Below are positions 9,274 through 62,640 of a stretch of DNA of 64,000 nt, one piece after another. The position numbers and the translations under genes were made by a program. The DNA lies in NCBI GenBank assembly GCA_046116545.1, contig CP175956.1, positions 77,219 through 141,218 on the forward strand, read 5' to 3'. The number at the start of each line of letters is the position of its first letter. Position 1 is the stretch's first letter. The stretch is from Candidatus Moraniibacteriota bacterium. Its GTDB lineage: Bacteria > Patescibacteriota > Minisyncoccia > Moranbacterales > GCA-2747515. Below the pieces are notes generated by a model. It made no database searches, was not told the origin of the DNA, and saw nothing but the letters and a program-made list of their open reading frames with translations.

Positions 9274-9490
9274 GTCTTTGCGAACAGAAGTGATGCTTAC
9301 TGTGTTATGTGAAGCAATCTCAAAAGTTTATAAATAATCTAACCGAGATTGCTTCGTCGTACCTCCTCCACCCAGGTGGTCCATCTACTACGCTTTAAAT
9401 TCAGAATAGTCGCTATACAGCTCCTTTCTTCATTTATCTTGAACAGAGTTCAATTTATTATGCCCTTGTGGTACACCTTGACGCAATGAC
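9274..9490. repeat. Palindromic element family A, long variant. It has unit I (gtctttgcgaaca...gtgaagcaatctc) and unit II (gagattgcttcgtcgtacctcctccacccaggtggtcc...), and extends to cttgaacagagttcaatt...caccttgacgcaatgac.
   Basis: Two-stem imperfect palindrome. gaagcaatctc pairs with gagattgcttc, and gtctttgcga pairs with tcgcaaagac. The sequence recurs at 12 or more further sites. Confidence 0.8.
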
Positions 9491-9571
9491 GCACTTTTTT
9501 GAGGCTTGTTTGAGAGTGTTAGGGATTACAAAATATTTAAATTCTATCATTTTCGTAAAACAAACTTTTTG

Positions 9572-9712
9572 GTAGGGACAGTGCCTTGTGCCTGTCCATT
9601 CAAATTTTAGAAATCCTTTATCCGGAATCTAAACTTTAATATTATAGTATAGATTCCGGACAGATTTATTTGTATTCTGATATCTCGGACAGGCACAAGG
9701 CACTGTCCCTAC
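9572..9712. repeat. Palindromic element family C. A 26-bp inverted-repeat pair (gtagggacagtgccttgtgcctgtcc / ggacaggcacaaggcactgtccctac) flanks about 90 bp that contain a nested palindrome (ccggaatctaaac...tagattccgg).
   Basis: The perfect 26-bp inverted repeats are read directly from the sequence. Single arms recur at 15751..15776 and, degenerate, at 45184..45241. Confidence 0.75.
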
Positions 9713-9856
9713 CAAATAATATCTTCCGGAATGGCACAGGCCTATGTTTATTTGTTAATTGAGATTGGGTGTAGTATGTAAAATTCTTGAATTCTAACCA
9801 ATTTAAAAAGACATGACTAACATCATGTCTTTTTATTAAAATTTCATTTTTGAAAT

Positions 9857-12112: not shown

Positions 12113-12141
12113 TTTTTATTATTATGTCAGTTGTTTTACAT

Positions 12142-12229
12142 GAGATTGCTTCGTCGTACCTCCTCGCAAAGACGATATCTAGTCATTGCGAACAGAACCA
12201 AAATCATCTGTGACCTGTGAAGCAATCTC
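12142..12229. repeat. Palindromic element family A (unit II then unit I, opposite order to 9274)
   Basis: gagattgcttcgtcgtacctcctcgcaaagac ... gtcattgcgaacagaacc...gtgaagcaatctc. Confidence 0.8.
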
Positions 12230-12236
12230 GATCATT

Positions 12237-12539
12237 TTATCCATTTTCTATCATTTTACCATATAAATCAACCCACTCAATATTACTATTTTCAATCAAT
12301 GCAATTTTATTTTTACGCGAACCACTTTTTATTTGTTTTTCTCTAGAAATTGCAGACTCAATTGATGGACATACTTCATAATGTACTAACTTATGCAAAT
12401 TATATCTTTGAGTAAATCCCCTTACAATATTATTTTTGTGTTCCCAAATTCGTTTTTGCAAATTAGTAGTAACTCCAACGTACAAAGTACCATCTTTTTT
12501 ATTCGTTAAAATATACACGCACGAAATTTTTTCATTCAT
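12237..12539 (-). CDS. GIY-YIG domain nuclease family protein (UPF0213-like)
   Basis: Motifs VYILTNKKDGTLYVGVTTNLQKRIWEHK and RPW-like. It is flanked on both sides by family-A repeats. Confidence 0.75.
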   Translation of the reverse strand: MNEKISCVYILTNKKDGTLYVGVTTNLQKRIWEHKNNIVRGFTQRYNLHKLVHYEVCPSIESAISREKQIKSGSRKNKIALIENSNIEWVDLYGKMIENG

Positions 12540-12575
12540 AATTTTGTCATATAATAAATCTCATGTCTTCATCTC

Positions 12576-12680
12576 GTCTTTGCGAGCAACTGTGACTTTT
12601 ATTATGTCTAGCGAAGCAATCTCCACCAGGTTTATTAATATACTCACTAAGATTGCTTCGTCGTACCTCCTCGCAATGAC
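12576..12680. repeat. Palindromic element family A. Its unit II overlaps the 3' end and supplies the stop codon of the GT4 gene.
   Basis: gtctttgcgagcaactgtgac...gcgaagcaatctc / ctaagattgcttcgtcgtacctcctcgcaatgac. On the minus strand, unit II reads ...V S L R G G T T K Q S stop. Confidence 0.8.
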
Positions 12681-13897: not shown

Positions 13898-15211
13898 CTA
13901 AAGTTGACCGTGGCCAACATATTTAAATCCTGCCTCCTCCATCTTTTTTGTCCTATACACATTTCTAAAATCAACAAATGCTGGATCTTCATTCATAAGA
14001 TCTTTCAATCTATTTAAATCCAATGCACGAAATTGATTCCATTCAGTCATTAGAACAATACAATCAGCTCCATCGGCCGCATTATACGCATCTGTCGCAT
14101 AATAAGTTTCCTCTGGCAATGAGCTGCGAGCTTCATTCATACCTTTTGGATCATAGACTCTAACTATCGCACCTTTCTCAGCAAGTGTATTAACAATCAA
14201 CACTGCTGCAGAGGCCCGAGTATCATCTGTTTCTGGCTTAAATGTTAAACCTAAAACAGTGATTGTTTTTCCTGCTACATCACCGTCAACAATACTTTTG
14301 ATTTTTTTGATCATTGATGCTTTTTGAGCACTATTTGCCTCAACAGTTGCACTAACAATACGCAAATTACTACCATATTCCTGAGCAATTCGCAAAAGCG
14401 CTAACGTATCTTTGGGAAAGCAAGAGCCGCCATAGCCTGGACCAGGATGTAAAAATTTATCACCAATTCTCCCATCCATGCCCATACCTTTGGCAAGTTT
14501 TAGCACATCAGCACCAACACATTCACAAAGATTAGCCATCTCATTAATAAAGCTAATTTTCATTGCTAAAAAAGCGTTTGATGCATACTTGATTAGCTCT
14601 GCCGTCTCCAAAGTAGTTTCTAAAATTGGTGCCTCTCTGATATACAACGGCTCATAAACATCACACATAATATCAAATGCTTCTTTAGTTTCAGCACCAA
14701 TAACAATCCTGTCTGGCCTCATGAAATCATCAATAGCCGCACCCTCTCGCAAAAATTCTGGATTAGATACCATGTCAAAGTTTGCATTTGGATTTGTGCT
14801 ACTGATTATTCGCTTAACCTGCATTGCCGTCCCTGCTGGAACTGTACTTTTGTTAACTATGACAGTGTAATCCCTGAGATGCGGTGCTATATTCTTAGCT
14901 GCCGCATGTACATAAGACAAATCAGCATATCCATCTCCACGACGACTTGTGGGAGTGCCTACTGCTATAAATATAACATCAGCACCCAGAACTGCCTCTT
15001 CTAATTCAGTCGTGAAAATCAAGCTTTTACCTGCAGAAACTTTGGAAATCAAGACTTCTAACCCTGGCTCATAAATCGGAACTCCTCCACCCTTGAGAAG
15101 TGCCACCCTGTCTTCATCAATATCCACACATGTAACATAATGACCAAGATCAGCAAAACATGCCCCAGTAACAAGTCCAACATAACCAGCGCCTATCATT
15201 GTAATATTCAT
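13898..15211 (-). CDS. ugd: UDP-glucose 6-dehydrogenase
   Basis: N-terminal NAD fold IGAGYVGLVTGACFADLGH, catalytic-cysteine motif GGSCFPKD, and the family's C-terminal domain. Confidence 0.9.
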   Translation of the reverse strand: MNITMIGAGYVGLVTGACFADLGHYVTCVDIDEDRVALLKGGGVPIYEPGLEVLISKVSAGKSLIFTTELEEAVLGADVIFIAVGTPTSRRGDGYADLSYVHAAAKNIAPHLRDYTVIVNKSTVPAGTAMQVKRIISSTNPNANFDMVSNPEFLREGAAIDDFMRPDRIVIGAETKEAFDIMCDVYEPLYIREAPILETTLETAELIKYASNAFLAMKISFINEMANLCECVGADVLKLAKGMGMDGRIGDKFLHPGPGYGGSCFPKDTLALLRIAQEYGSNLRIVSATVEANSAQKASMIKKIKSIVDGDVAGKTITVLGLTFKPETDDTRASAAVLIVNTLAEKGAIVRVYDPKGMNEARSSLPEETYYATDAYNAADGADCIVLMTEWNQFRALDLNRLKDLMNEDPAFVDFRNVYRTKKMEEAGFKYVGHGQL

Positions 15212-15377
15212 TTTCTACTTTCTCCTTTTTTAAATTGAATAGTTACACTTTTAATAAATGCTAACTGTATAATTAAAGAACACATCTCAAAATAAAGATG
15301 TGTCAAAAGTATAACAAAATAGGGAAACTCGTCAATGAAAAATAATCATATATAACTCCGTTCCTTTCTGTGTTTAT

Positions 15378-15543
15378 GTCATTGCGAACAGAGCCCACAT
15401 CATTTGTAACATGTGAAGCAATCTCATTACAATATCTATGTCTTTGCGAACAGAGCCCATGTTCATTATGACATGTGAAGCAATCTCATTGGGTTTATTA
15501 GTTCACTTACTGAGATTGCTTCGTCGTACCTCCTCGCAAAGAC
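15378..15543. repeat. Palindromic element family A. Two tandem unit-I copies are followed by unit II.
   Basis: gtcattgcgaacagagcccacatcatttgtaacatgtgaagcaatctc, then gtctttgcgaacagagcccatgttcattatgacatgtgaagcaatctc, then gagattgcttcgtcgtacctcctcgcaaagac. Confidence 0.8.
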
Positions 15544-15590
15544 GATAGCCTGTGGATAAACTTGAACAGTTATAGAATTATATCCAACCA

Positions 15591-15632
15591 AAACCACCCC
15601 TCAGTCCCCTCCTTAAAAAGGAGGGGAGGTAA
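15591..15632. repeat. Hairpin element family B, part 1 (accacccctcagtcccctccttaaaaaggaggggagg)
   Basis: Near-identical copies lie at 41471..41510 and 45381..45420. A variant lies at 19851..19880. Confidence 0.7.
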
Positions 15633-15635
15633 AAA

Positions 15636-15672
15636 CTAAACTAAACTAAACTAAACTAAACTAAACTAAACA
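15636..15672. repeat. Pentanucleotide microsatellite (ctaaa), about 7 copies
   Basis: Direct tandem ctaaactaaactaaa..., read from the sequence. Confidence 0.85.
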
Positions 15673-15750
15673 GAATAAAACAGAACTAAGCTAAACATAC
15701 ATCATACGCTCCTACAGACTTGTCATTCCAGAAAATATTATTTGTATCCT

Positions 15751-15776
15751 GTAGGGACAGTGCCTTGTGCCTGTCC
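15751..15776. repeat. Family C arm, single copy
   Basis: gtagggacagtgccttgtgcctgtcc, identical to the 9572 arm. Confidence 0.7.
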
Positions 15777-15850
15777 GAGATATTACTTTACAAATAAATT
15801 CATCAGGAATTTACACTATACGATTATTTCAAATCTTTAGTAACATTCAA

Positions 15851-15905
15851 GCCTCTCCCCTTTTTTAAAGGGGGAGATGTCCTAAGGACAGAGGGGGTTC
15901 CACGC
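15851..15905. repeat. Hairpin element family B, part 2 (ctctcccctttttt aaagggggagatgtcctaaggacagagggggtt)
   Basis: Copies lie at 19931..19980 and 41373..41420. Confidence 0.7.
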
Positions 15906-15981
15906 CAACAACTAATAATAAAAAAAGCTACTGTACCTTTTAAAGATACAGTAACTTCAACAAATACAATAACTGATTATT

Positions 15982-16929
15982 CTATAGTTCTACAACATTC
16001 TTAACAGTATAATTCATTCTTTTCTGACCTTTATAATAATTTTTCATTACAATATCTGCAAGAAGTCCAAACACAAAGAACTGTACTCCCAACATTATGA
16101 AAAATGTACCCATAAGTGGCCAGATTCGCTCTGACAATGCAGCGTCAAAAAATACTTTCTCAACACTCATCCATGCAAGAATTGTCATGCCAAAAAATAT
16201 AAACACCATGCCTCCTCCGCCAAAGAAATGTAATGGTCTTGAAGCATACTTACGCCAAAACCAGATTGATATCATATCAACAAACCCCTTCACTGAACGT
16301 TTCCAATTATATTTAGTAACACCCGCAACTCTAGCGTGATGAGAAACCTTCACCTCTCCCACTGTATATCCATCTAATTCTAAAATAGCCGGTATAAAAC
16401 GATGCATTTCTCCAAACAAATCAATTCCTCGAAGTGCATCACCATCATACACCTTTAAACTACAACCAGAATCATGTATAGAATCTTTCAATAATAATTT
16501 TCGAAGCTTGTCAGCTGTTCTAGAAAAGAATTTTTTTGAAAAAGAATCTTTTCTATCAAATCTCCAGCCTGATACAATATCATACCCTTCAGCCTTTTTT
16601 TCTAGTAACTTTCCTATGTCAGCAGGATCATTTTGCAAATCACCATCCATCGTAACAATTACATCACCTACAGATGCCTTGAAGCCAGCATCAAACGCAG
16701 CTGTCTGACCAAAGTTCTTACGCAATTCAATCAATGTTAAATTAGATAAAGACTTACAAATTTCAACAGTCTTATCACAAGAACCATCATCCACAAAAAT
16801 AACCTCGTATGATTTATTCAATCCATCACATGCTTCAACAATTTTCCTGTGTAATTCTGCAACATTTCCTTCCTCATTATAAACAGGAACTACAACTGAT
16901 AACTGTACCTTTTTTTCTGAATTTTCCAT
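15982..16929 (-). CDS. GT2 polyprenol-phosphate glycosyltransferase (DPM1/ArnC/GtrB-like) with C-terminal TM helices
   Basis: Motifs VVVPVYNEEGNV, FVDDGS and MDGDLQND (DxD), plus two C-terminal TM helices. This is the expected partner enzyme for GT-C transferases. Confidence 0.85.
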   Translation of the reverse strand: MENSEKKVQLSVVVPVYNEEGNVAELHRKIVEACDGLNKSYEVIFVDDGSCDKTVEICKSLSNLTLIELRKNFGQTAAFDAGFKASVGDVIVTMDGDLQNDPADIGKLLEKKAEGYDIVSGWRFDRKDSFSKKFFSRTADKLRKLLLKDSIHDSGCSLKVYDGDALRGIDLFGEMHRFIPAILELDGYTVGEVKVSHHARVAGVTKYNWKRSVKGFVDMISIWFWRKYASRPLHFFGGGGMVFIFFGMTILAWMSVEKVFFDAALSERIWPLMGTFFIMLGVQFFVFGLLADIVMKNYYKGQKRMNYTVKNVVEL

Positions 16930-17043
16930 TCTAGCTTTTTTAATTTCTTAAATTCTTAACTAAATACTAACATACCAAATACACAGATTCAACTCTAAGT
17001 TGTATAAGTGCTCCCAAATTTCAGTCTTTGCGAGCAACTGTGC

Positions 17044-17186
17044 CATTTCATACGTCCTGCGAAGCAATCTCGTCAAAATATTTATGTCATTGCGAACAGA
17101 AACCACATCATTTGTAACATGTGAAGCAATCTCCGTAGGTTTATTAATGCACCCACTAAGATTGCTTCGTCGTACCTCCTCGCAAA
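17044..17186. repeat. Palindromic element family A. Two unit-I variants are followed by unit II.
   Basis: gtctttgcgagcaactgtgccatttcatacgtcctgcgaagcaatctc ... gtcattgcgaacagaaaccacatcatttgtaacatgtgaagcaatctc ... ctaagattgcttcgtcgtacctcctcgcaaaaac. Confidence 0.8.
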
Positions 17187-17238
17187 AACAAAATACTTTA
17201 TTGCCTCTCCTTGTAAAGACGTTGTTTTTTAAATGTTT

Positions 17239-18333: not shown

Positions 18334-19842
18334 TTGATATACTGTTTATATATTCACATTGAAATAAATACTAAAATGTTACATAAAAAAAATATTACAA
18401 TTGCAAATTCAACAATATTCTTAACTATCCTGTGCTTATTATTTTTTGGCATGACTAAATTTTCTTTTGCTGCTGAGTGGCGCTATGAGGGGGTTGCCTA
18501 TTATGTACCAACCTCATCAAGTAATAACCTTCCTATATATCGATTTTATTCTCCGAAAAATAAATCTCATTTCTTTACAAAGTCAAAATCAGAAAAAGAT
18601 GCTATTATCAAAAAATATCCTACAACAGAGTGGAGATATGAAGGAGTTGCCTATTATGTGCCAAAGTCCTCAACAGGAAACCAGGCTGTTTATCGATTTT
18701 ATTCTCCTAGCAAAAAAACACATTTCTTTACAAAATCAAAATCAGAAAAAGATGCTATTATCAAAAAATATCCCACAACAGAGTGGCGATATGAAGGAGT
18801 CGCATATTATGTGCCAATAACTTCTACTAACAATAAACCTGTATATCGATTTTACAATACTATAAACAAGGCACATTTTTTTACAGCCTCAGAAAGTGAA
18901 AAGATTAGGTTAACTGCTAGTATTTATGGACCGTATATTTCTATTGGACTTCATGAATATTCACGTAGCACACTAAAAGACTCTGCATTCAAAATTGACT
19001 CAAAAAAAGATTATCTCATCAAAGACAAAAATGGTACAACAATTGCAAAAATTAAGGCTGGTGTACAAACAAAAGTTAAATATGATTCTGATGGAAATTT
19101 AAAAATATATAATTCCATATCAGAAAAAAAAGTTAATAAAGAGGTTAGATTTGAAGCAGCTGATGGAAACAATAGTGGTATGATATTTGATATACACAAA
19201 CCAGAATCTGATTTTGATGAATACCGTGGCAAAACAAAACTACGTTATAGTGATACAAGCAAAAATATTTGGGTTATCAATGAATTACCATTGGAATATT
19301 ATATTTGGGGTATGGGTGAAATCACTGGAACAGGTCCAATGGAATATAATAAAATGATGACCACAGCATATCGTACATATGGTTATTGGAAAATCCTCTA
19401 TTCCACCAAGTATGCTACTGAAGGATTTAAAGTAAATGCAACGCCTGGTAATCAAATTTATTATGGTTATGAATGGGAAAAAAGGTATCCTCGTATTAGA
19501 GAAGGAGCTGAATCAACACGTGGGAAAATTGCAAAACATGGTGATGATGTGGCATTAACTCCTTACTCAAGCTGGACTGATGGCAAGACACGTAGTTTTG
19601 AAGAACATTGGGGATCAACACTATATCCATGGTGTCAGTCTGTATCAGACCCTTATGGTGATTATAATGGTGACTATTGGGACAATTCATATAAAAGTAC
19701 ATCCGACCTTGTAGCAAGTGGCAATCATATGGTAGGTATCAGTGCACATGGAGCACTAACACTAGCAAATGATAAAAATTGGAATTGGGACAGAATTATG
19801 AAATACTATTTAGATGGAATTAATATTGTTTCAATTTATTAA
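18334..19842 (+). CDS. Secreted SpoIID/LytB-domain protein with three N-terminal 42-aa tandem repeats
   Basis: Signal peptide, then three copies of EWRYEGVAYYVP...PVYRFYSP.NK.HFFT.S.SEK. The C-terminal domain has SpoIID-like motifs INELPLEYYIWGMGEI...AYRTYGYW and YPWCQSVSDP. Confidence 0.65.
   Translation: MIYCLYIHIEINTKMLHKKNITIANSTIFLTILCLLFFGMTKFSFAAEWRYEGVAYYVPTSSSNNLPIYRFYSPKNKSHFFTKSKSEKDAIIKKYPTTEWRYEGVAYYVPKSSTGNQAVYRFYSPSKKTHFFTKSKSEKDAIIKKYPTTEWRYEGVAYYVPITSTNNKPVYRFYNTINKAHFFTASESEKIRLTASIYGPYISIGLHEYSRSTLKDSAFKIDSKKDYLIKDKNGTTIAKIKAGVQTKVKYDSDGNLKIYNSISEKKVNKEVRFEAADGNNSGMIFDIHKPESDFDEYRGKTKLRYSDTSKNIWVINELPLEYYIWGMGEITGTGPMEYNKMMTTAYRTYGYWKILYSTKYATEGFKVNATPGNQIYYGYEWEKRYPRIREGAESTRGKIAKHGDDVALTPYSSWTDGKTRSFEEHWGSTLYPWCQSVSDPYGDYNGDYWDNSYKSTSDLVASGNHMVGISAHGALTLANDKNWNWDRIMKYYLDGINIVSIY
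18475..18860 (+). repeat. Three 126-bp (42-aa) tandem coding repeats
   Basis: Periodicity is visible in the DNA and in the protein. The alternate-frame ORF 18467..18820 is an artefact of this periodicity. Confidence 0.8.
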
Positions 19843-19850
19843 TAACCACC

Positions 19851-19980
19851 ACTCAATCACCTCCTTTAAAAGGAGGTGAGATAAAAACTAAACTAAACAG
19901 AATTAAAGTTAAGTTAAATTAATCATACTATCCTCTCCCCTTTTTAAGGGGGAGATGTCCGAAGGACAGAGGGGGTTTTG
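19851..19980. repeat. Hairpin element family B (part 1 variant + ctaaa x2 + part 2)
   Basis: tcacctcctttaaaaggaggtga ... ctctcccctttttaagggggagatgtccgaaggacagagggggtt. Confidence 0.7.
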
Positions 19981-20604: not shown

Positions 20605-22467
20605 ATGAGAAACATCAAAAATATATATCTAATAATACTTGCATTATTTTTAATAGCATTTCCCACAGTAATTCATGCACAATCAAAATTGCCATCAATC
20701 CCCATACAATCAATCGCAGCTGAAAAAAACTATGTTGAAGGTGAAGTAATTGTAAAATATAAAATAAATACAAAAAAACAACAATTACTAAAAACATCTA
20801 CAGAAAAAAATGAATCACCAAGACTACTGCAATCTCTACAGGAAACACAATCCATGCATGATCTAAAAATAAAAAATACATTCAAAAATTTAAATATCAC
20901 AACATTACAATCAGATATACAATCAACCCAAGATTTAATAACTAAACTAGAACAAGATCCTGAAGTGGAATATGCGGAACCTAACTACAGAAAATATCCT
21001 ACATCAATACCAAATGATACTTATTTCAAAAGTACACAATGGGCACTATACAATACAGGACAGGAACTTTGTACACCTGACTGCACTACAGGAACAATCG
21101 ATGATGATATTGACGCAACAAATGCTTGGGATATAGAGATTAGTGCTGCCCAAAAAATAACCGTTGCAGTAATAGACAGTGGCTTAAATTATAATCACGA
21201 AGATTTATTACAAAATTTATGGAATGGTGCTAGTTGTGTAAATGAAAATGGAACAACTATACATGGTGGTTGTCCATATCATGGATGGGATTACGCCGAT
21301 AATGACAATAATCCTGCTGATACTACTGGAAGTGCGCAAGGACATGGAACAAGCGTTTCAAGTATATTTGGTGCAACAACAAATAATTCAAAAGGACTTG
21401 CAGGCATCAGTCTATATGGCAATGTAAAGGTTATGGCACTTCGATTTGATTTGGATACAATCTCTGAAATAAAAGCTATTGAATTTGCAAAAAATAATGG
21501 TGTCAAAATTATAAATGCAAGTTTTGCAGGAGATGCCTATTCACAATCAGAAAAAGATGCTATTGATGCATTTCCTGGAATATTTATAACAGCATCTGGC
21601 AACGGTGGCATTGATGGCTTACGTGATAACAATGACGTTACACCGCAATATCCATGTAATTATTCATCAAGTAATATAATATGTGTAGGTGCATCTGATC
21701 AAAATGATAATCTTGCTAGTTTTTCAAATTATGGACAAACAAGCGTTGATTTAGTGGCTCCTGGAGTAAATATATTAATTGCTTGTGATAATGTCTACTG
21801 TACTGGTGATGGTACTTCATTTTCTACACCCTACGTAACAGGTGTTGCTGCAATCTTGTCTAGCCACAATACAAAATTGTCTACATCACAAGTGAAAAGT
21901 TTAATACTTGATAATGTCGATAATGTTGGACTATCAACACAGATAAAAACGGGAGGTCGTCTTAATATGTATAAATCTCTTTACGATTTGAAAACTAGTT
22001 ACGGATATTCATACTCCACAAAACCAGTTTACAGATTCTATTCACCAAGCAATAAAGCACATTTCTTTACTGTATCCGAAACTGAAAAGAATCATATTGT
22101 TGCAACTTACCCAACCACTGAATGGCGATATGAAAATATTGCTTATTATGTACCAACAACATCTACTGGCAATAAGCCTGTGTATAGATTCTATTCACCA
22201 CGCAACAAAGCTCATTTTTTCACTGTATCAGAAACTGAAAAGAATCATATTGTTGCAACTTACCCAACCACTGAATGGCGATATGAAAATATTGCTTATT
22301 ATGTACCAACAACATCTACTGGCAATAAGCCTGTATATCGATTTTATTCTCCACGTAACAAAGCACATTTCTTTACTGTATCAGAAAGTGAAAAGAATCA
22401 TATTGTTGCAACTTACCCAACCACTGAATGGCGATATGAAAATATTGCTTATTATGTACCAAAATAA
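20605..22467 (+). CDS. Secreted subtilisin-like serine protease (peptidase S8) with three C-terminal 42-aa tandem repeats
   Basis: Signal peptide. Catalytic triad motifs VAVIDSG (Asp), HGTSVSS (His) and GTSFSTPYVTGVAA (Ser). The C-terminus has three near-identical repeats PVYRFYSPRNKAHFFTVSETEKNHIVATYPTTEWRYENIAYYVP. Confidence 0.85.
   Translation: MRNIKNIYLIILALFLIAFPTVIHAQSKLPSIPIQSIAAEKNYVEGEVIVKYKINTKKQQLLKTSTEKNESPRLLQSLQETQSMHDLKIKNTFKNLNITTLQSDIQSTQDLITKLEQDPEVEYAEPNYRKYPTSIPNDTYFKSTQWALYNTGQELCTPDCTTGTIDDDIDATNAWDIEISAAQKITVAVIDSGLNYNHEDLLQNLWNGASCVNENGTTIHGGCPYHGWDYADNDNNPADTTGSAQGHGTSVSSIFGATTNNSKGLAGISLYGNVKVMALRFDLDTISEIKAIEFAKNNGVKIINASFAGDAYSQSEKDAIDAFPGIFITASGNGGIDGLRDNNDVTPQYPCNYSSSNIICVGASDQNDNLASFSNYGQTSVDLVAPGVNILIACDNVYCTGDGTSFSTPYVTGVAAILSSHNTKLSTSQVKSLILDNVDNVGLSTQIKTGGRLNMYKSLYDLKTSYGYSYSTKPVYRFYSPSNKAHFFTVSETEKNHIVATYPTTEWRYENIAYYVPTTSTGNKPVYRFYSPRNKAHFFTVSETEKNHIVATYPTTEWRYENIAYYVPTTSTGNKPVYRFYSPRNKAHFFTVSESEKNHIVATYPTTEWRYENIAYYVPK
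22018..22464 (+). repeat. Three near-identical 126-bp tandem coding repeats
   Basis: The copies differ at only a few nucleotides. The alternate-frame ORF 22097..22525 is an artefact. Confidence 0.85.
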
Positions 22468-22540
22468 AATAATACCTACCAACTCATCGCCATTGCTAGG
22501 AAGTACAACGAAGCAATCTCAATAATAAACTCCAGCATTC

Positions 22541-33482: not shown

Positions 33483-34283
33483 TTATTTATTTATAAATAC
33501 TCTATTACTTACAATATACCCATTTAATAACATCGTTTCTTTGTTATTATATTTAATTGTACTATTCTGCATATCACAAACATATCCACCCGCTTCCTGT
33601 ATAATGATATCACTTGCGCAAATATCCCACAAGCCACTTTTATTACTTGAATTAATATACAATTCTGCATCACCTACTGCAACTTTACATATTTTAATAC
33701 CAGCTGAACCCATAGGAGCCTGTTTCATATTATTTTTCTCTGCAATTTCTTGTTCATAATCTCCCAAGTGATTTCGACTTACTAGAATTCTGCCATTTTT
33801 CATTGGTTTTTTGCTAGTTGAAATTCTTTTAGGAAGATTCCTGCCTTCGTAGGAATGACAATAGAAAAATGCGCCTTTATTTTTCTCGGCATAATATAAT
33901 TCATTTAATACTGGTGCATACACTATACCAAAAATTGACTCACCCTCCTTATTTACTAATCCAATCATTATTGAAAATTCTCCTGTTTTTTGTATGAAAT
34001 CAGATGTCCCATCTAGTGGATCAATAATCCACACAAAGTTTGCTTTTTTTCTATTTTCAAAATCATCCTCAATCTCTTCACTTAATATTGGATAATTATA
34101 TCTTGATAATTTATCCATCAAAAAATTATTCACTGCAATATCTGCCTCCGTTACAGGTGTTTTGTTTTGTTTTTGTTCTATGGTGTATTCTTTATCATAA
34201 AACTGCATGGCGATGTTACCTGCTTCAATTGCTATTTTTATTATTTCTTGGATATTTATATTGTAATTTTGCATGATTATCAT
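33483..34283 (-). CDS. cysQ: Inositol monophosphatase family protein, probably 3'(2'),5'-bisphosphate nucleotidase (CysQ-like PAP phosphatase)
   Basis: Motifs EEIEDDF...WIIDPLDGTSDF, IVYAPVLNELYYA and GSAGIKICKVAVGDAELY. Genomic context is cysC and a sulfotransferase. Confidence 0.7.
   Translation of the reverse strand: MIIMQNYNINIQEIIKIAIEAGNIAMQFYDKEYTIEQKQNKTPVTEADIAVNNFLMDKLSRYNYPILSEEIEDDFENRKKANFVWIIDPLDGTSDFIQKTGEFSIMIGLVNKEGESIFGIVYAPVLNELYYAEKNKGAFFYCHSYEGRNLPKRISTSKKPMKNGRILVSRNHLGDYEQEIAEKNNMKQAPMGSAGIKICKVAVGDAELYINSSNKSGLWDICASDIIIQEAGGYVCDMQNSTIKYNNKETMLLNGYIVSNRVFINK
33836..33860. repeat. Family-D hairpin (gattcctgccttcgtaggaatgaca) embedded in-frame in the cysQ-like CDS
   Basis: Differs by 1 nt from the copy at 45483..45508 downstream of another gene. 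Encodes HSYEGRN within the CDS. Confidence 0.6.
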
Positions 34284-34294
34284 TACTCAAACTA

Positions 34295-34320
34295 GATTCC
34301 CGCCTACGCGGGAATGACAC
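34295..34320. repeat. Family-D hairpin (gattcccgcctacgcgggaatgaca) in the 3' intergenic spacer
   Basis: Short palindrome ending in ggaatgaca. Terminator-like position downstream of cysC. Confidence 0.55.
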
Positions 34321-34902: not shown

Positions 34903-36318
34903 TTATTTTTTGCTCCATTCGTGTTCAATGCGCATTATTCCTACTCCAGACCCTTTTTGTTTTTTAATTTTGATAATATGATTATTTAGTTCTTTTGTTG
35001 AATTAGAATCCACAATATCATTTTGTCCACTTTTATTTTCAAATAAAACAGCTTTTATATATATTTCCCCCGTGTTAAACATCGTGTTTTTAAAATAAAT
35101 TATAAATACATTTCTATCTTTTTGCCAACTGCAATTAAAATTATCTACATCTGTATTATTACCACACAAAAATACATTTGTTTCATTGTCAAAAATTTGC
35201 ACTGCTTGCACAAGATTATGCTTAATTTTTGAAACTTGCACTTCAATCTCTACAAAAAAATCATCACCCCATGTAATTTCAGTTAATTTATTTCTATCTA
35301 TATCAAAAACCTGTATATCTGTAATTATATTTTCATTTTTCACTTGTCTTTTCATACCACCTCTTAGTGATTTCTCATGTTCCTGCTCTTCTTTTTCAAT
35401 CCGTTCCTTTTTTTCTAATTCTTCACGTTGGTCTTCAGACATATTTTTAATAATATATTCATCACATACATCATTCACATCACCAGAACCAAGTAATTCA
35501 CCCTTATGTAATAATAAAGCTCTATCACAATATTCTCGCACTGTTGCCATACTGTGGGTTACTAATATTACAGTTTTTCCCCTCTCTTTATATCCTCTGA
35601 AAATATCAAGACACTTCTCTTGAAATCTACTATCCCCCACAGCCAATACCTCATCCATAATAAGTATTTCACGATCTGCATGAATTGACACACTGAAAGC
35701 GAGACGAGCCTTCATGCCACTTGAATAATTTTTTAATTGTTCGTCTATAAATTTTTCTAATTCTGCAAATGCGACTATTTCATCAAACTTTTCATCAATT
35801 TGTTTTTTTGTTAAACCTAGTACTGTCGCATTGAGATATATATTGTCTCGTCCTGATAATTCTGGATTAAAACCTATTCCTAGCTCAAGGAATGGTGATA
35901 TCATACCATTTACCTCAATTGATCCAGATGTTGGTTGATAAACACCTGCTAAAATCTTTAACAATGTAGACTTACCTGCCCCATTATGTCCTATAATTCC
36001 CAAAAATTCTCCTTTTTTTACTTCTACTGAAATATCTTTGAGAGCGTAGAATTCTTCATATGTATTTTTTTTCAAAGAATTCACAAAAGCACTTTTCATT
36101 GAATCAATTTTTTTGTGAGGAATTTTAAAGATTTTTGAGACGTTTTTTACTTTTACTGCTATTTCTTTATCTGGCTGAGATTGCTTCGTCGTACCTTCTC
36201 CACCCAGGTGGTCCCTCTCTTGAACAGAGTTCAATTCACCTTGACGCAAAGATGCATCTTTTTTTACTTTGATGCTTTTATCTTTTTTATTTGATTGTTG
36301 GTTATTTTTTTTATTCAT
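34903..36318 (-). CDS. wzt: ABC transporter ATP-binding protein of the Wzt/TagH/KpsT polysaccharide-export type, with a C-terminal substrate-binding (Wzt_C-like) domain. It carries an in-frame 84-nt family-A insertion near the N-terminus.
   Basis: Walker A GHNGAGKST, signature YSSGMKARLAF and Walker B ILIMDEVLAVGD. An extra ~180-aa beta-rich C-terminal domain is present. The N-terminal leader contains SLRQGELNSVQERDHLGGEGTTKQSQP, encoded by repeat A. Confidence 0.8.
   Translation of the reverse strand: MNKKNNQQSNKKDKSIKVKKDASLRQGELNSVQERDHLGGEGTTKQSQPDKEIAVKVKNVSKIFKIPHKKIDSMKSAFVNSLKKNTYEEFYALKDISVEVKKGEFLGIIGHNGAGKSTLLKILAGVYQPTSGSIEVNGMISPFLELGIGFNPELSGRDNIYLNATVLGLTKKQIDEKFDEIVAFAELEKFIDEQLKNYSSGMKARLAFSVSIHADREILIMDEVLAVGDSRFQEKCLDIFRGYKERGKTVILVTHSMATVREYCDRALLLHKGELLGSGDVNDVCDEYIIKNMSEDQREELEKKERIEKEEQEHEKSLRGGMKRQVKNENIITDIQVFDIDRNKLTEITWGDDFFVEIEVQVSKIKHNLVQAVQIFDNETNVFLCGNNTDVDNFNCSWQKDRNVFIIYFKNTMFNTGEIYIKAVLFENKSGQNDIVDSNSTKELNNHIIKIKKQKGSGVGIMRIEHEWSKK
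36177..36251. repeat. Palindromic element family A, long unit II, inserted in-frame in wzt
   Basis: gagattgcttcgtcgtaccttctccacccaggtggtccctctcttgaacagagttcaattcaccttgacgcaaagat. This is the reverse complement of the intergenic copy at 24850..24926. Confidence 0.85.
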
Positions 36319-37226: not shown

Positions 37227-37640
37227 TTACTTTGGCACATAGTATGATACTCCTTCATACCTCCATTCTGTTGTAGGATATGTTGCAATAATATGATCCT
37301 TTTCACTTTCTGAAACTGTGAAAAAATGTGCCTTATTACGTGATGAATAAAATCTATATACTGGTTTATTACCTGCTGCAACTGTTGGCACATAGTATGA
37401 TATACCTTCATATCTCCATTCTGTTGTAGGATATGTTGCAATAATATGATCCTTTTCACTTTCTGAAACTGTGAAAAAATGTGCCTTATTACGTGATGAA
37501 TAAAATCTATATACTGGTTTATTACCTGATGCAGATGTTGGCACATAGTATGATATTCCTTCATATCTCCATTCTGTTGTAGGATATGTTGCAATTATAT
37601 GATTCTTTTCACTTTCTGAAACTGTGAAAAAATGGGCCTT
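37227..37640 (-). repeat. Three near-identical 126-bp tandem coding repeats
   Basis: Visible DNA periodicity. The alternate-frame ORF 37181..37594 is an artefact. Confidence 0.85.
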
Positions 37641-40600
37641 ATTACGTGCTGAGTAAAATCTATATACAGCTTGTTTTTCTTGTCTATCTGCATTCTCTTC
37701 TTCTATACCGTCTACATCAAAACTTATTGGAAAATCTGTATCATTTGTATTTCCTGATTCTTCTGTACACCTTATATAATAATTGTACGTATTTCCGTCT
37801 GATAATCCTGTTATATCATGTCCATGATCCTCGCCTCCTGTAACATTTGTCATTGCTGACATATCTGCATAAACTGTATTTAGAGCATCAGAATATCTAC
37901 ATGTTGCATTTTCCCATGTATTTAAATATATTTCTACACTAGTTGTTCCACTTGGTTGTGTCCCATCTGGGCTACCATCAAATCTATCTGGCATTGTATT
38001 ATCTACTTCAAAAGAAGTAACACTTAATACATTACTGGTATTTGCAGAACCATCTGTCACACTAATTGTACAATTACTATGAGTTCCCTCCGATAAAAAA
38101 TTAAAAGTAATTGTGTTATTTCCAACAGTCGCTGTACTTGTAACACTAGAGCAATCACCTCCATAAGTAATAGTTCCTACTTCATCTGTGTTGAATGTAT
38201 AGTCTGGTGTATTATTATTTGTTGGAGTTGATACTGGTGTCACTTCCGTTACTATAGGCGCTACCACATCGCTAATTGATTCATCTTTTATTTTTGATAC
38301 AAAAATATCATAACATCCATATGATGTTAAAGTATTTCCAGTCATATTAATTGTATCTTTAAATCTTCCAACTAAATATCCTTTCCCATAGTCATTAAAA
38401 GCCATTGCTTCACCTGTGTCAGTGCTTGTATTGCCCCAAGACTCTAATGAACTAGCATCTCCAGTTACAACATCTAATATTCCATAAAATATATCATAAC
38501 CACCAGCAGAACTCACGGGCAATGCGTCTGCATATAATGTTCCATAAAATCCACCTGTTATATATATGTTATTATCATTTACTTTAATGTCTGTACTATT
38601 CGTTGATGACGCGTTAGTCCAATGCTTCATCCAATCTACATCTCCATCAGTATTCAATCTTGCAATATATATATTATCATTACTGATTCCTGCTAAGGCT
38701 TGTCCAAATACATCTGCATTATTTTGAAACGTGCCTGATGTATACACATTTCCACTATCATCTATATCAATTGTATATCCATAATCACGAGCATACTCTG
38801 CACTACCACCTCCCTGTTTGGACCATACACTATCTCCATTTACATCTAATTTTGCCAAAAATATATCATATCCTCCAGTTCCACCACCTTCCGTAAATAC
38901 ATTCCCAAAAATATTTGCAACATCACTAAAATAACCGGTAACAAATACATTTCCATTTGTGTCTGTGACAATATCATTGCCTTTATCTAGGCTAGAGCCA
39001 CCCGATCTTTTTGCCCAAATATTATTTCCATCACTATCTATCTTTGCTACAAAAATATCATCACTACCAGCTGATACTAGAGATACTCCTAAAATATCAG
39101 TAGTCCCCGCAAATGAACCAGTTATGTACAAATCATCATTATCATCTATATATATCGATTTAGGATATTCTGTACTTGTACCACCAAAATTATATGCCCA
39201 AATCACATTACCATCATTATCTAATTTTGAAAGATAACCATCATAACTTCCGTTTGATGTTAAATCTATTCCAAAAATATTTGCATCATTACTAAAATAG
39301 CCTGTTAGATATAAATTACCCATGCTATCAATTTCAATAGATGGACTAGTTACATAACCAGTACCGTAAGCATGTTTTGTCCAAACAGAATTCCCATCTA
39401 AATCCAACTTTGTAATGAACGTATCCCACGGTCCATCTGCCACTAAATTTGTACCAAATATATCAGCATCTGTGTTAATAATTCCAACAACATAAGCATT
39501 TCCAGAATCATCAATAACAACATCATAAGCACCTTCACTTCCGCCTGAGTACGTATATGAGTTACACAATCCTGCATAATCCCCACCAGCATGTTTTGTC
39601 CACTCTGTAGTTCCAATATTAATATTTTTCATCATCAATTTTGTACCATTTGAACCGTCTGGCATATTATCATTTGATTCAAATGCTATTTTACTTCTGT
39701 CGGGTGAGATTGATGGTGCTCCATCATATCCTGCAAAATTTGTAAGTCTCTCCACAGTACCGCCTGCAACTGGAATTTTATAAATTTGTGCTAAATTTGT
39801 TTCAAAATCACTACTGTAGATTATATAATGACCATATTCTGAAAATACAGCATCTGTCTTGTCACCTGCACCACTTGTAACTTTTGATTTGTCTGTTCCA
39901 TCTGTATTCATAGTCCATATATCCCACATACCTCCATCTAATTTTTGATATAAAATTTTATCTCCTTTTGGTGACCAATTTGGTTGTCTACAATCATCTC
40001 CCGTATCTGTTAGATTTATGTAACTACTACTTCCATCAATTTTATACTTTGTAATAATTCCATCAGTTGGCACATCTACATCATGAGTTTCAAAAACAAC
40101 CCACTGACCATCGTGACTAAATGACGGTTCATATGACATTTTAGCACTCCCGCCTATTCTATCTGTAATTTTAACTTCTGCTCCTGTTGTAGCACTATCA
40201 CCTATACGAAATACTTCATCATGTGGATCTTTAGATGAAGAAAATGTTATTTCATTTCCAACCCATGAACTCCCAGGTAAATTCACATTATCATTTCCAT
40301 CACTCATGAGTTCTGTCACATTTTCTGATGCTATATCATAAATGTATAAATCAGCCGGACCTTCATTATATCCATTTCTCCACCGTGTAAAAAGAATTTT
40401 ACTTCCATCGGGAGAAAAAGCAGGGTTTTGCAAACTACCTGTTAAATTTATATTTAATACTGTCTCCCCATCATTTCTGACTATATAATCCTCGCATCCA
40501 AATCTGTATGCATCTAAATCAAGATTTTTCTTAAGCCAAGAATATCCACTAGAGTTTGCCTGTGAACAAAATTTATCTGTATCTACTCTGTACTCAACTC

Positions 40601-41370: not shown

Positions 41371-41512
41371 ACCTTCTCCCCTTTTTAAAAGGGAAGATGT
41401 CCGATAGGACAGAGAGGGGTTTGTTATAGTAGCTTTTTAATCTTTGTATTATTTAGTTCTTATTTTTACCAAAACCACCCCTCAGTCCCCTCCTTAAAAA
41501 GAAGGGGAGGCT
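41371..41512. repeat. Hairpin element family B (part 2 then part 1)
   Basis: ccttctcccctttttaaaagggaagatgtccgataggacagagaggggtt ... accacccctcagtcccctccttaaaaagaaggggagg. Confidence 0.7.
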
Positions 41513-41934: not shown

Positions 41935-44900
41935 TTATTTAATTAACTTTTTAAAAATAAACACACTAACAATCATCAAAAATAATAGGAATATTCCAAT
42001 CAAAATATCTTTGATTGATTTTTTGTTTTCGGAATTATTATCATCTTTTATTTCCTTATTTTCATTTTCTACTGTATTGTTTTGAGATTTCTCTACTTCG
42101 GTCGAAATAACGTCCTTTTCATTTGCCACATCATCCCCCAGAGATTGCTTCGTCGTACCTCCTCGCAAAGACTCATTATTAAAAATATTTTCCGTAATAT
42201 TATTTTTTTCGTCATCGTCATCATCATTGTCTTTGTCATCATCTTTATTTTCATTGCTTTCACTACTACTAAATACTGTACTTCCATCATTTCCATCCTC
42301 TAATGTAGTAGTTCCATTGATTTGTGGTACAACTTCATAATCATTACTTCCATCACCATCATAATCAGCTGTGAGTCTTGTAATATTTTCCAATCCAGTT
42401 CTTGGAATTGCAAAACTTACTTTTGTATTTTCTGATGTTGGTAGATTTTCCATTGTTAGATATGAGGTTACTTCTTCTCCTGCCTCCGTGATACTCACTT
42501 CCTCTAATTTGATAGTATATGAACCTGTATTATAACCATCCAACTCCACGATTATATCACTACCACCCCATCCTACAAATTTATGTTCTCCAAATACATC
42601 GTAATAACTATTTGGCATATTTTCTTCTATAATTTGATTTCCATTTTCATCTATTATGGGTCCTGTGTGATTTCCTTGATTGTCGTATAAATGAATGTCT
42701 AGTGGTGAATATAATGCCATTCTAAGTCTTTTTGCACTGTGTTTACTATGCTTTATTGCGTCAGTGTCATCTGGTCTATTTTTCGTGATATAATCAGACA
42801 ATTCTTCTTGAATTTCATGTTTACTGATGATATTTGAGATTAAATTTCGTAACGACTTAACTTCTAAAATATCTTTGTGCTTTCTATCTTTCGCAAAACC
42901 CTTATTTTCTTCATACATATCCAAAAAATATTTCTCAACATTCTCAGATTCTGACATCATAAGTGAACTTGGTGTTACTACAACATTATCTCCATCTACT
43001 GTATATTTTGGTATATATGATTCTACTGTTACATCTTTGCATTTCGTTCTTTTTATTCCTTCTTTTGTTACTTTATCTTCACATTCTACTTTTGTGATAC
43101 TTTCATAATCTATTTCACTTATTGTATCAAGCCCCCAGCCTCCTATTTGTATTAGATTTACATTTTCTGGTGGTGTCCAGTTATTTAACTCTTCGTGCAA
43201 TTCTTTATTTTCATCAAATAATTTCTCATTTAATATATTTGCTCTTTTTGTATCATTCTTATTTGGTTTGTGTCTATTATCTTTTTTTGCCAATAGAAAA
43301 TCCTTGAATTCATCATAACTATTTATTGTATCTCCATATGCTTTTTTGTATTTCTTGTATTCTGATTTTTCTGATTTAAAATTTATTATTGGTTTATCTA
43401 TTCTTCTGAAATATTCTTCTGTTGGTAAAAGTCCATAAGCAGATGGCATATTTCGTACTACCTCCCTAGCTTCTGCGTCACTGATAACTGAATTTAATTC
43501 TATTTTTTCATCAAATCCATACAACATTGTCAAGATTGCCTTTGATGTTCCCATTTGTGGTGAACTTACCATGACAATATTATCAACTTTATCTGTCATG
43601 TTCAATATTTCAAGTTGTTGCATTATGGATTTTGCTAGTAATCCACCATTTGAATGAGCTACAATTGTAACTTTTCCACTAACTGATGAGTCAGATAATC
43701 TCATCACTTCACTTATTGGATTTTTTATAGAACTCATTTCATAATTTGTTCCATTTATTGCAATATCGTCTACACTTTTTCTCCAATCATATGCATATAA
43801 AGAATAATCATTTATTATTCTATCATCTTTTAAGTTTTTTAAATCTCCAAAAAATCTTTTGTAAATATTTGGAGCTAATACACTAGGAAGTCCTGCTTCA
43901 TAAATTGGCTCTTCAGTGAAAATATCATTTATACTATTTCCATCTTCATCTAATAATATATTTTTGTAATCATCTCCACCTGGAGTAGGTGGCCATACTT
44001 GATTTGTACCGTCATATAATCTGCTAGCTTTTGCACCTGGTAAAAACAATACATTTGATGCAAAATCCGATGATCCTCTCCAATCGTATTCTAATACATT
44101 TGTATCTCCGCTTACTTTTTCACCTGCTGCTAATATTGCATAATCGTCTCCATTTTCATTAACAAAGTTACCTGTTGGACCGTTTGTATGTCCGTACCAA
44201 TTATTTTCTAAAATAACCTTGCTACTGTCATGAGTCATTGCATCATTTTCACATGTTTCACAACATGCATCATAAATAGCATCATTTTGATTATTGTTAT
44301 ATTCATCATCACAGTTATCATAACAAATATCTTCTCCTTCAAAGTCATAAACTACAACATTTGAAATTACTGCTATATTTTGTCCACTTTCTTCAAAATT
44401 AGAATTTTTAATATGTACATAACTATTTTCATTGTAATCTTCTTCAAGTTCCATCTCTACTTGAATATCTGCATACTTGCTATTTTTGAAAATAACATTT
44501 TCCATATCTAATTGTCCTGACATATGTAGTATTGCTGGTGCTTTTCGAATAGCTTCTTCATCTGCATAAACATTATTTGTTATGATGTCATGTATTGCTA
44601 TCCCTGGACAATGTAATTCATTGTAATCAAAATATTCTCCCAATCCATCAAATTCTACAAATTTAAAAAATGATGGTTCAAATATATAACCATCAATTTC
44701 ATACGTATCAAATTTAAATGCTGAAACTCCACCTAAATCACACTGCTCATCAAACTCATTTCCTTCATTAAATGGAGTTTTTGTAAAAACTATTTTATTA
44801 TCAATATCGCCAACTGCAACAATACGTCCAGCATCTTGTACTACGATATGCTTTATTGATATATGTGATCCAGCTTCAATAGTTACTGTTGCACCATCAA

Positions 44901-45090: not shown

Positions 45091-45183
45091 GTCTTTATTT
45101 TAGCATGCTTTATTTGTTGTGGTCTAGTTTTTTTGATATATAAACCATTTCTAACTAACGAGCACTACTCATTGTAGTGGCGT

Positions 45184-45241
45184 GGCCTTGTGCCCGCCAT
45201 GTAGATCTAATGCGAGGACAGCCACAAGGGCATGTCCCTAC
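45184..45241. repeat. Family C, degenerate copy
   Basis: ggccttgtgcccg...gacagccacaagggcatgtccctac. Confidence 0.5.
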
Positions 45242-45273
45242 AAAAAATAGATGTCACTCTTAAATGGCGAATC

Positions 45274-45321
45274 GAGATTGCTTCACATATCACAAATAAT
45301 GTCACTTCAGTTCGCAAAGAC
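45274..45321. repeat. Palindromic element family A, unit I in reverse orientation
   Basis: gagattgcttcacatatcacaaataatgtcacttcagttcgcaaagac. Confidence 0.75.
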
Positions 45322-45380
45322 GCTACACAAATGATACTGATTTTTCATTTAAAATTTGTTTTATACTTACGTTATATACA

Positions 45381-45420
45381 AAAACACCTCTCAGTCCCCT
45401 CCTTAAAAAGGATGGGAGGT
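45381..45420. repeat. Hairpin element family B, part 1
   Basis: aaaacacctctcagtcccctccttaaaaaggatgggagg. Confidence 0.7.
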
Positions 45421-45482
45421 TATTAAACTTACACAAAATAGATATTACATAATATTATAGGATTTTCTCAAACTTTTCGAAA

Positions 45483-45508
45483 GATTCCTGCCTTCGCAGG
45501 AATGACAT
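45483..45508. repeat. Family-D hairpin immediately downstream of the GT gene (terminator-like)
   Basis: gattcctgccttcgcaggaatgaca. Confidence 0.6.
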
Positions 45509-49235: not shown

Positions 49236-49284
49236 TTGTCATTCCGGAAGTGAAAAATTAGAATTTTAACTTCCGGAATGACAA
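49236..49284. repeat. Family-D-like palindrome (ttgtcattccggaagtg ... cacttccggaatgacaa)
   Basis: Perfect 17-bp inverted arms around a 15-bp loop, read from the sequence. Confidence 0.7.
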
Positions 49285-62372: not shown

Positions 62373-62400
62373 TTGTCATTCCTGCGTAGGCAGGAATCTT
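62373..62400. repeat. Family-D hairpin (gtcattcctgcgtaggcaggaatc) in the grpE-dnaK spacer
   Basis: Read from the sequence. A related tggaatgacaa lies at 62490..62510. Confidence 0.5.
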
Positions 62401-62640
62401 TCTGTAATTTCAAAGATATTTTATAATCTGTTCAAAAGATTCCGGACAATGATATTTTTTGCCAATCACTTTGTTCTTGGAAAAATATACATTTCTGGAA
62501 TGACAATTTATATATGTTACTAACTTGATTGATTAAACTAGTTATAAATTGAATATTTATCATTCTCATGAACATAGAATCCTCGCGATTAAATTCTATA
62601 TTCATTTTGAATGACAATATTCTCAATGTTTGATTATTAA

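Follow-up and report, generated by a model that had tools for sequence, protein, structure and literature searches.

The 770-nt intergenic island at positions 15212-15981 of a 64,000-nt stretch of a Candidatus Moraniibacteriota genome (contig CP175956.1; the whole stretch is referred to as the window) is probably a lineage-specific pile-up of hairpin DNA repeats of the repetitive extragenic palindromic (REP) type, resembling a bacterial interspersed mosaic element (BIME), and not a set of RNA genes. Genomes of the candidate phyla radiation (CPR) type are usually considered streamlined and repeat-poor, and REP-type repeats have mostly been studied in Proteobacteria. The island holds units of three families that we call A, B and C in the order A(+), A(+), A(-), B1(+), C(+), B2(-), which is the composition of a BIME, and similar mosaics lie at 9.3, 19.8, 41.4 and 45.2 kb of the window.

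The island lies in a spacer that is short in relatives

The features of the island and of its two flanking genes are as follows.

13898..15211, minus strand: UDP-glucose 6-dehydrogenase (UGDH) gene
15212..15981: the island, which is the spacer between the GT2 and UGDH genes (770 nt here; 116-226 nt in syntenic relatives)
15278..15335, minus strand: ancestral backbone, with a promoter-like TTGACG-16-TATACT (15335-15308) and a leader hairpin (15304-15278)
15378..15543: family A triple, with A-long (+) at 15378-15425, A-long (+) at 15440-15487 and A-short (-) at 15511-15543
15592..15630, plus strand: family B1 unit, AACCACCCCTCAGT followed by a CCCCTCCTT/AAGGAGGGG hairpin (67.9 bits)
15633..15696, plus strand: (AAACT/CTAAA)n microsatellite (Tandem Repeats Finder: period 5, 12.8 copies, 7 perfect units)
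15724..15822, plus strand: palindromic element of ~100 nt with family E arms (CATTCCAGAA...CAGGAAT) on the outside, nested between B1 and B2
15751-15776, plus strand: GTAG-tagged family C core GTAGGGACAGTGCCTTGTGCCTGTCC, inside the ~100-nt palindromic element
15851..15905, minus strand: family B2 unit, with a mirror pyrimidine arm, a GTCCTTAGGAC mini-hairpin and a CTCCCCC/GGGGGAG hairpin
15924..15958, minus strand: unique intrinsic terminator of the GT2 gene, with a 16-bp stem and T-run (fold z = -5.7)
15982..16929, minus strand: family-2 glycosyltransferase (GT2) gene

Read along the gene strand, the order is GT2 stop codon, terminator, B2, C/E element, microsatellite, B1, A triple, promoter, leader hairpin and UGDH. 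All repeats of the island therefore lie between the GT2 terminator and the promoter-like site, in a stretch that probably has no coding role and is not required for expression. The GT2 terminator belongs to no repeat family, and a scan for G+C-rich hairpins followed by a T-run flagged only this site (15958-15924) and the leader hairpin (15304-15279); no member of a repeat family was flagged. The second A-long unit of the triple and the inverted A-short unit are separated by a 23-nt spacer and make up a head-to-head dimer that folds as one long imperfect hairpin.

The A triple, the B hairpins, the microsatellite and a family-C arm had been listed by a first-pass annotation of the window, and each was found at, or within a few bases of, the position assigned there. 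The C arm is real and turned out to be the GTAG-tagged core of the ~100-nt element at 15724-15822. Beyond the families listed at that stage, two more are present, D (dRS3/NTS-like) and E (CATTCCRGAA...TCCGGAAT).

Relatives were found through homologues of the dehydrogenase (69-72% identity) on contigs with the same gene order. The order DUF4349-GT2-UGDH-GT4-LPG synthase is common to the window and to relatives L130-L134, and three of the spacers in it are longer in the window:

GT2-UGDH spacer: 116, 179 or 226 nt in relatives; 770 nt in the window
DUF4349-GT2 spacer: 51 nt in relatives; 309 nt in the window, with a second family A triple at 17024..17193
GT4-LPG synthase spacer: a 4-nt overlap in L130 and 53 nt in L134; 534 nt in the window, with an A-ssn-A cassette

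The promoter and leader hairpin are the only part of the GT2-UGDH spacer that the window and the relatives share. The leader hairpin is kept in L130, L132 and L133 with compensatory changes in its stem, and it may be a regulatory leader or attenuator of UGDH. The promoter-like site has a TG extension, and the leader hairpin is followed by TTCTTT.

On our explanation, the ancestral spacer would have contained nothing but the dehydrogenase promoter and leader hairpin, and ~550-650 nt of repeats would have been inserted between the upstream terminator and the promoter in this lineage. The insertions would comprise the A triple, a B1-B2 dimer in whose spacer the microsatellite grew, and the GTAG/E element nested in that dimer. 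Nesting is supported by a second B1-spacer-B2 unit at 19844-19977, which is homologous to 15592-15905, spacer included. Compared with it, the 15.6-kb copy is richer in CTAAA units and contains a further ~150 bases, in which the C/E element lies. A proto-repeat of the microsatellite is present in the homologous spacer at 19886-19920 and is expanded at 15633..15696. The earlier suggestion that the elements were inserted and nested in one another thus stands, both on the spacer lengths of relatives (116-226 nt vs 770 nt) and on the comparison of the two dimers.

The families are over-represented in the window

The window is low in G+C (~32%) and 89% coding, with ~11% intergenic, and elements are present in most of its spacers longer than 100 nt. 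Chance counts were taken from dinucleotide-preserving shuffles of the window. The two ends of family A, GAAGCAATCTC and GTCWTTGCGA, were found 18 and 16 times (0.01 and 0.08 expected), the motif CYCTCWGTCC six times (0.07 expected) and the family C core four times (0.01 expected). Contigs from four independent samples are 99.97-100% identical to the window across the parts that they cover, which shows that the repeats are not an assembly artefact.

A CRISPR array, integron attC sites, ribozymes and tRNA-derived elements were rejected on the unit architecture and the lack of tRNA or Rfam hits, and intrinsic terminators were rejected as the identity of the repeats, which are without T-runs. Searches with Rfam 15 gave no match at gathering score in the window, none at E <= 10 for the repeats and none at gathering score in five phage loci; the best sub-threshold hit had E = 0.37. 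A literature search with the literal repeat sequences returned primer coincidences only.

Family A units flank a GIY-YIG gene

Family A units have constant ends, GTC(A/T)TTGCGA and GAAGCAATCTC, and a variable interior, which is 11 nt long in A-short (32 nt overall), 27 nt in A-long (48 nt overall) and ~55 or ~125 nt in the other units. About 20 complete units occur in the window. The commonest composite, A-long(+), a 23-nt spacer (..GGTTTATTAAT..) and A-short(-), folds into a long imperfect hairpin no less well on one strand than on the other (z = -5.7 and -6.2), as a DNA palindrome would. The load of complete units is 0.33 per kb in the window and 0-0.11 per kb in relatives L130-L137; together with the absence of family B from these relatives, this points to a lineage-specific burst.

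Two of the features in the expanded GT4-LPG synthase spacer are relevant to how family A may spread:

12113..12680, minus strand: A-ssn-A cassette, with A units 12141-12229 and 12576-12680 around a GIY-YIG gene
12237..12539: GIY-YIG Ssn-like gene, 100 aa, called on L127 with PF01541

Four A units flank this gene and are present on both sides of it. The cassette is absent from L130, L132 and L134, in which the GT4 and LPG synthase genes are adjacent. The window GT4 protein is 83% identical to that of L130 and has 10 additional C-terminal residues, SLRGGTTKQS; these residues and the stop codon are supplied by an A unit (...YNNV-SLRGGTTKQS* in the window vs ...YDKI* in L130). In-frame A copies occur in four open reading frames (ORFs) of the window (42141-42172, 46069-46106, 12648-12680 and 36177-36260), and all read SLRGGTTKQS.

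Ssn genes (cd10448) encode a single GIY-YIG domain of ~94 aa and are flanked by hairpins, which are the NTS repeats (CGTCATTCCCGCGMAVGCGGGAATCYRG) in Neisseria and Ssn-related motifs (SRM) elsewhere (PMC11893778). In single-stranded DNA, Ssn attaches to the hairpin and cleaves immediately upstream of it, and it is inert on double-stranded DNA and RNA; it has been reported mainly in Pseudomonadati, and the NTS-ssnA-NTS arrangement was likened by the authors to an insertion sequence (PMC11893778). Family A units start with GTC(A/T)TTGCGA, end with GAAGCAATC and pair as an ATTGC/GCAAT stem, and so have what marks an SRM: an inverted repeat (20-50 nt) that can form a hairpin, preceded by an oriented, conserved (C)GTCAT flank left unpaired.

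We used 120 loci, among the matches listed, that had been picked solely by the A-short 26-mer. A homologous GIY-YIG ORF was found in 12 of the 120, and in 10 of these 12 an A-end motif lay <=25 nt from the ORF. The usual layout is unit(+)-gene-unit(-), with the inverted A unit typically directly after the stop codon. In 316 kb of control loci there were no GIY-YIG ORFs of that kind. On contig L013, a 94-aa homologue that is 56% identical to the window protein is flanked by NTS-like D hairpins. Family A thus flanks GIY-YIG genes here and in ~10 unrelated metagenome contigs, which indicates that it is a variant of the NTS/SRM repeats.

A and D elements, as (C)GTCAT-tagged NTS/SRM repeats, would fold as hairpins in single-stranded DNA, where an Ssn-type nuclease would bind them and cut just upstream. 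The Ssn homologue of the window would recognize A units that become single-stranded in replication, transformation or repair, and its activity, direct or via repair, would underlie the spread and clustering of family A; gene-less A dimers and triples would then be non-autonomous relatives of the A-ssn-A cassette. We infer both that the homologue cuts A units and that it, or some other factor, moves them. More tentatively, and with considerable doubt on our part, the unit(+)-GIY-YIG-unit(-) cassette could represent an as yet unrecognized class of autonomous transposon driven by a GIY-YIG single-strand nuclease, and the gene-less A and D hairpins could be its non-autonomous progeny that cross phyla. 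If this were true, the GT4/LPG synthase site of the window would be the first filled-versus-empty-site evidence for mobility of such a cassette.

Family B forms inverted dimers and has relatives in phages

B1 units consist of AACCACCCCTCAGT followed by the CCCCTCCTT/AAGGAGGGG hairpin. B2 units follow the same plan, with the addition of a GTCCnnnGGAC mini-hairpin and a CTCCCCC/GGGGGAG stem. B1 and B2 stand head-to-head at 15.6 and 19.8 kb and tail-to-tail at 41.4 kb, and a single B1 is unpaired at 45.4 kb. The two further dimers are:

19844..19977: B1 (+), spacer, B2 (-); head-to-head dimer without a nested insertion
41372..41511: B2 and B1 in the opposite, tail-to-tail arrangement

The first-pass annotation had proposed that the B unit might be a small structured RNA. 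In wider form, the proposal would make B (or A) units small structured RNAs or cis-regulatory RNA such as processing sites, stabilizers or attenuators, which we consider quite improbable. Paired changes do keep the stem (CCCCTCC/GGAGGGG in B1, CTCCCCC/GGGGGAG in B2 and CACCTCC/GGAGGTG in the 19844 copy), and a 31-nt B core is identical across three phyla. In 17 phage contigs, B2-type elements always lie in the sense orientation, 2-3 nt past a stop codon and before a ribosome-binding site, and their nested loop hairpin varies while pairing is kept. However, no Rfam family matched B, its fold z-scores are only -0.9 to -2.6, and the terminator scan found no U-tract after the B hairpin. Orientation to genes in the window is mixed (one sense and three antisense B1 units; two sense B2 units and one antisense), units are paired as inverted dimers, and those of the island lie between a terminator and a promoter-like site. 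Covariation among six B1 copies amounts to one compensatory pair and two disruptions, and is not significant, as 65 of 500 shuffles were as good. A C.A mismatch recurs on the sense strand of phage B2-type copies, and for 12 of 15 the better fold is that of the antisense strand. Family B therefore behaves like the other hairpin DNA repeats; in phages a role as RNA is conceivable.

When ~900 kb of retrieved loci were scanned with a B1 covariance model, the B-like hairpins detected beyond L002 and L003 were all weak, and the close relatives (L130-L137) had no B; BLAST of B1 against plasmids gave no match. The phage B2-type elements consist of CCCTCTGTCCnnnGGACATCTCCCCC followed by the variable nested hairpin and sit at gene junctions of real phages (L141-L157), with up to four elements per contig; the copies in L144 are at 1049, 6921, 11568 and 12069. 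In a Rhodohalobacter metagenome-assembled genome (MAG; L002 1700-1900), a B1-like unit ends a tandem array of 30-nt units (ACATACGGTCGGCAGGCCCACCTTTAAAAA).

Eleven B-like elements of varied origin were compared, and in 10 of them the 5′ stem arm is mirrored by a pyrimidine arm lying upstream, which has A or T facing the stem T. Such elements include 15592-15630, 15851-15905 and 19844-19882 of the window and copies in L003, L018, L071, L102 and L121, and in the 19844 copy all three mirror-arm positions have changed together. This pattern is the one required for a bottom-strand triplex of the antiparallel purine motif, and the element may form H-DNA or a triplex; because the sequences are of low complexity and the independent families few, we treat this as a lead. 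Alongside the transposon reading of family A, and more speculatively, B elements and their relatives in phages may represent a class of their own that has yet to be described.

Families C, D and E and the other islands

Family C is a GTAG-tagged hairpin, GTAG-GGACAG-TGCCTTGTGC-CTGTCC. It occurs at 9572 (+), 9687 (-) and 15751 (+) and as a diverged pair at 45174-45241, and with its GTAG tag and inverted doublets it has the features that define GTAG REPs and REPINs. At 15.7 and 9.6 kb it sits inside a ~100-nt palindromic element with the E arms CATTCCRGAA...TCCGGAAT. Family E surrounds a C core at 9600-9733 and 15724-15822 and is found without one at 62438-62504 (-) and 49240-49280.

Family D (GTCATTCCTGCGAAGGCAGGAATC, at 33836, 34292, 45483 and 62375) is an SRM-type hairpin with a GTCAT flank. 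One copy falls at 33836-33859 in frame within an inositol monophosphatase domain, and the copy at 62375-62398 is shared with relative L137 in decayed form.

The D copy that matches the published motif and the two remaining islands of the window are listed below.

9274..9733: island with an A-long unit, a 146-nt A variant (9345-9490) and an inverted C pair (9572-9597 +, 9687-9712 -) in E arms
34292..34319, minus strand: family D copy TGTCATTCCCGCGTAGGCGGGAATCTAG, the only window site matching the published SRM pattern; it contains a perfect dRS3 palindrome
45174..45506: mosaic with a diverged GTAG pair (45174-45241), A-long (45274-45321, -), B1 (45382-45420, +) and D (45483-45506, -)

The further mosaics that the first-pass annotation had marked are thus real, with extents of 9274-9712, 19844-19977, 41372-41511 and 45174-45506. 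Their clustering at the same intergenic sites had been ascribed to preferred landing zones. This is plausible, and tolerance of insertion accounts for the clustering no less well than targeting: where 89% of the genome is coding, few tolerant sites would be available, possibly combined with a preference to insert beside existing hairpins.

The families occur far beyond the window

The A-short 26-mer was found in at least 120 metagenome contigs of GC 0.32-0.60 from many habitats, as well as in Nostocales plasmids and two viral contigs. A B1 21-mer is present in the Rhodohalobacter MAG and in a Neomarinimicrobiota MAG, the latter with three B-like copies in 5.4 kb, and B2 is present in 17 IMG/VR viral contigs. 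Families C and D recur on L013 (GC 0.32), an unrelated contig. In the Nostocales plasmids (L128 1440-1580 and L129 1350-1490) the A-short unit is 91-94% identical over 33 nt and is embedded in a larger repeat common to Trichormus, Tolypothrix, Calothrix and Aulosira plasmids.

Restriction of the elements to the window would have suggested that the island arose by local duplication and slippage only, from families neither mobile nor shared. There is some sign of such processes: the A triple at 15378-15543 is 82% identical to 17058-17189 over 132 nt, at a distance of 1.6 kb, and the microsatellite shows that slippage occurs at the locus. The families are, however, dispersed across the whole 64 kb and occur on L013, in at least 120 contigs, in other phyla and in viral contigs, which refutes local duplication as the sole source; we give it almost no chance.

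The same distribution bears on whether the hairpins are signals selected by the host, whether in DNA or RNA: terminators, mRNA-stabilizing REPs, nucleoid or gyrase sites, or recombination markers as for the Neisseria NTS. Roles of this kind have been assigned to REPs (PMC3733652), and NTS-gene-NTS arrangements reduce transformation in N. meningitidis (PMC11893778). In the window, A triples of like orientation stand on either side of the GT2 gene (15378-15543 and 17024-17193), and the B1-B2 dimer at 19844 begins 2 nt past a stop codon. We nevertheless regard selected signals as unlikely. Relatives have the same operon without the elements, so that these genes do not depend on them; the GT2 gene is served by a unique terminator of its own; copies lie in frame within five ORFs; and the occurrence of identical sequences in phages and in organisms of such different GC is better accounted for by horizontal spread than by signals specific to a host. 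Domestication following invasion may have taken place and is compatible with a pile-up of mobile repeats.

Relation to known repeats and points against the explanation

The CGTC-tagged class of REPs includes dRS3 and the Rickettsia elements RPE-4 and RPE-6 (PMC3733652), and the NTS are a subset of the Neisseria dRS3 repeats (PMC11893778). CGTC REPs were noted without a known enzyme (PMC3733652), and a partner enzyme was reported in 2025 (PMC11893778). Genomes can carry CGTC and GTAG REPs side by side; the elements also form dimers, either head-to-head or tail-to-tail, and some lie within genes (PMC3733652). Family C is of the GTAG class, which in other bacteria is mobilized by RAYT transposases; family B has no known partner.

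One close likeness is to the NTS/SRM-Ssn system (PMC11893778). The NTS/dRS3 core ATTCCC-N8-GGGAAT is found in family D at 34296-34315, and family A has an oriented GTCAT(T) head, an AATC tail and a stem starting with AT. As in that system, family A lies on both sides of a single-domain GIY-YIG gene of ~100 aa, in a layout like that of an insertion sequence, and clusters around genes. The A stem differs in having five conserved bp (ATTGC/GCAAT) that are followed by G.A/A.A mismatches and a distal part of 11 to ~125 nt. The host here is a CPR bacterium.

With REPs, REPINs and BIMEs (PMC3733652; PMC3116915) the window shares short tagged palindromes of both superfamilies coexisting in one genome, head-to-head and tail-to-tail dimers that include heterodimers, extragenic mosaics and occasional in-gene copies, and, in family C, inverted doublets with a GTAG tag like those of REPINs. 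It differs in that no RAYT was seen in the window, that the A loops are far longer than the 4-5 nt of CGTC families, that family B is without either tag and that five families are stacked in one 64-kb stretch. The in-frame translated copies, four of family A (SLRGGTTKQS) and one of family D in the inositol monophosphatase domain, recall the Rickettsia palindromic elements; those are about 100-150 nt long and belong to another host lineage, whereas the repeats here are of 32-38 nt. Of the two hallmarks of miniature inverted-repeat transposable elements, terminal inverted repeats and a target-site duplication, an inverted-repeat architecture is present in the A dimers, the B1-B2 units and the E arms, and no unambiguous target-site duplication could be defined at the nested insertion.

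Several results weigh against a pile-up of mobile repeats, or against the part assigned in it to the nuclease. Because the spacer is of low complexity, global alignment could not place the nested C/E insertion unambiguously, and neither a target-site duplication nor a precise junction emerged. Same-population contigs from the four samples showed no insertion polymorphism and thus no sign of ongoing movement. The promoter and terminator calls are consensus matches only. No family A unit in the window matches the published SRM pattern, HGTCWYN(0-2)YYVSBRHN(0-5)WNVSBRGN(0-2)RNCYNB, for which reason we file family A as a variant that works like an SRM and not as an SRM defined by the pattern. The product of 12237..12539 had only weak GIY-YIG-type hits in NCBIfam and weak matches to UPF0213 proteins (E = 1.5e-5) in a PDB search, and a GIY-YIG gene stands beside only ~8% of the sampled A-short copies. 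Pfam detected no RAYT (Y1 transposase) in 40 non-overlapping ORFs of at least 120 aa, with ~11 overlapping ORFs not scanned, and no candidate partner enzyme was found for family B.

The repeat-nuclease type is now seen in a CPR (Moranbacteria) organism with contigs reaching ~1.3 Mb. Because the family A hairpin variant escapes the published pattern, the abundance of SRMs elsewhere may be underestimated. The spacers of relatives provide comparative evidence that hairpins and a hairpin-ssn-hairpin cassette were inserted, which the Ssn paper raised as a hypothesis only, and the elements are shown to be read in frame into proteins. For annotation, the island serves as a warning that conserved hairpin 'islands' like these are repeats, not RNA genes.

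Other features of the window

Tandem repeats of 153 nt at 18389-18994, 22033-22486 and 37232-37690 encode DUF5648 domains. The DUF5648-repeat proteins are of secreted type: a SpoIID-like protein, a subtilase and a GH114 protein. The GrpE-DnaK spacer contains a long inverted repeat, TCATTC...AATCGCGAGG...GAATGA (62560-62614, minus strand), that is kept in both L136 and L137; a heat-shock operator and an RNA thermometer are possible roles for it. The GrpE encoded at 62641-63537 (minus strand) is fused to an N-terminal NUDIX domain, and this fusion is kept in L135-L137.

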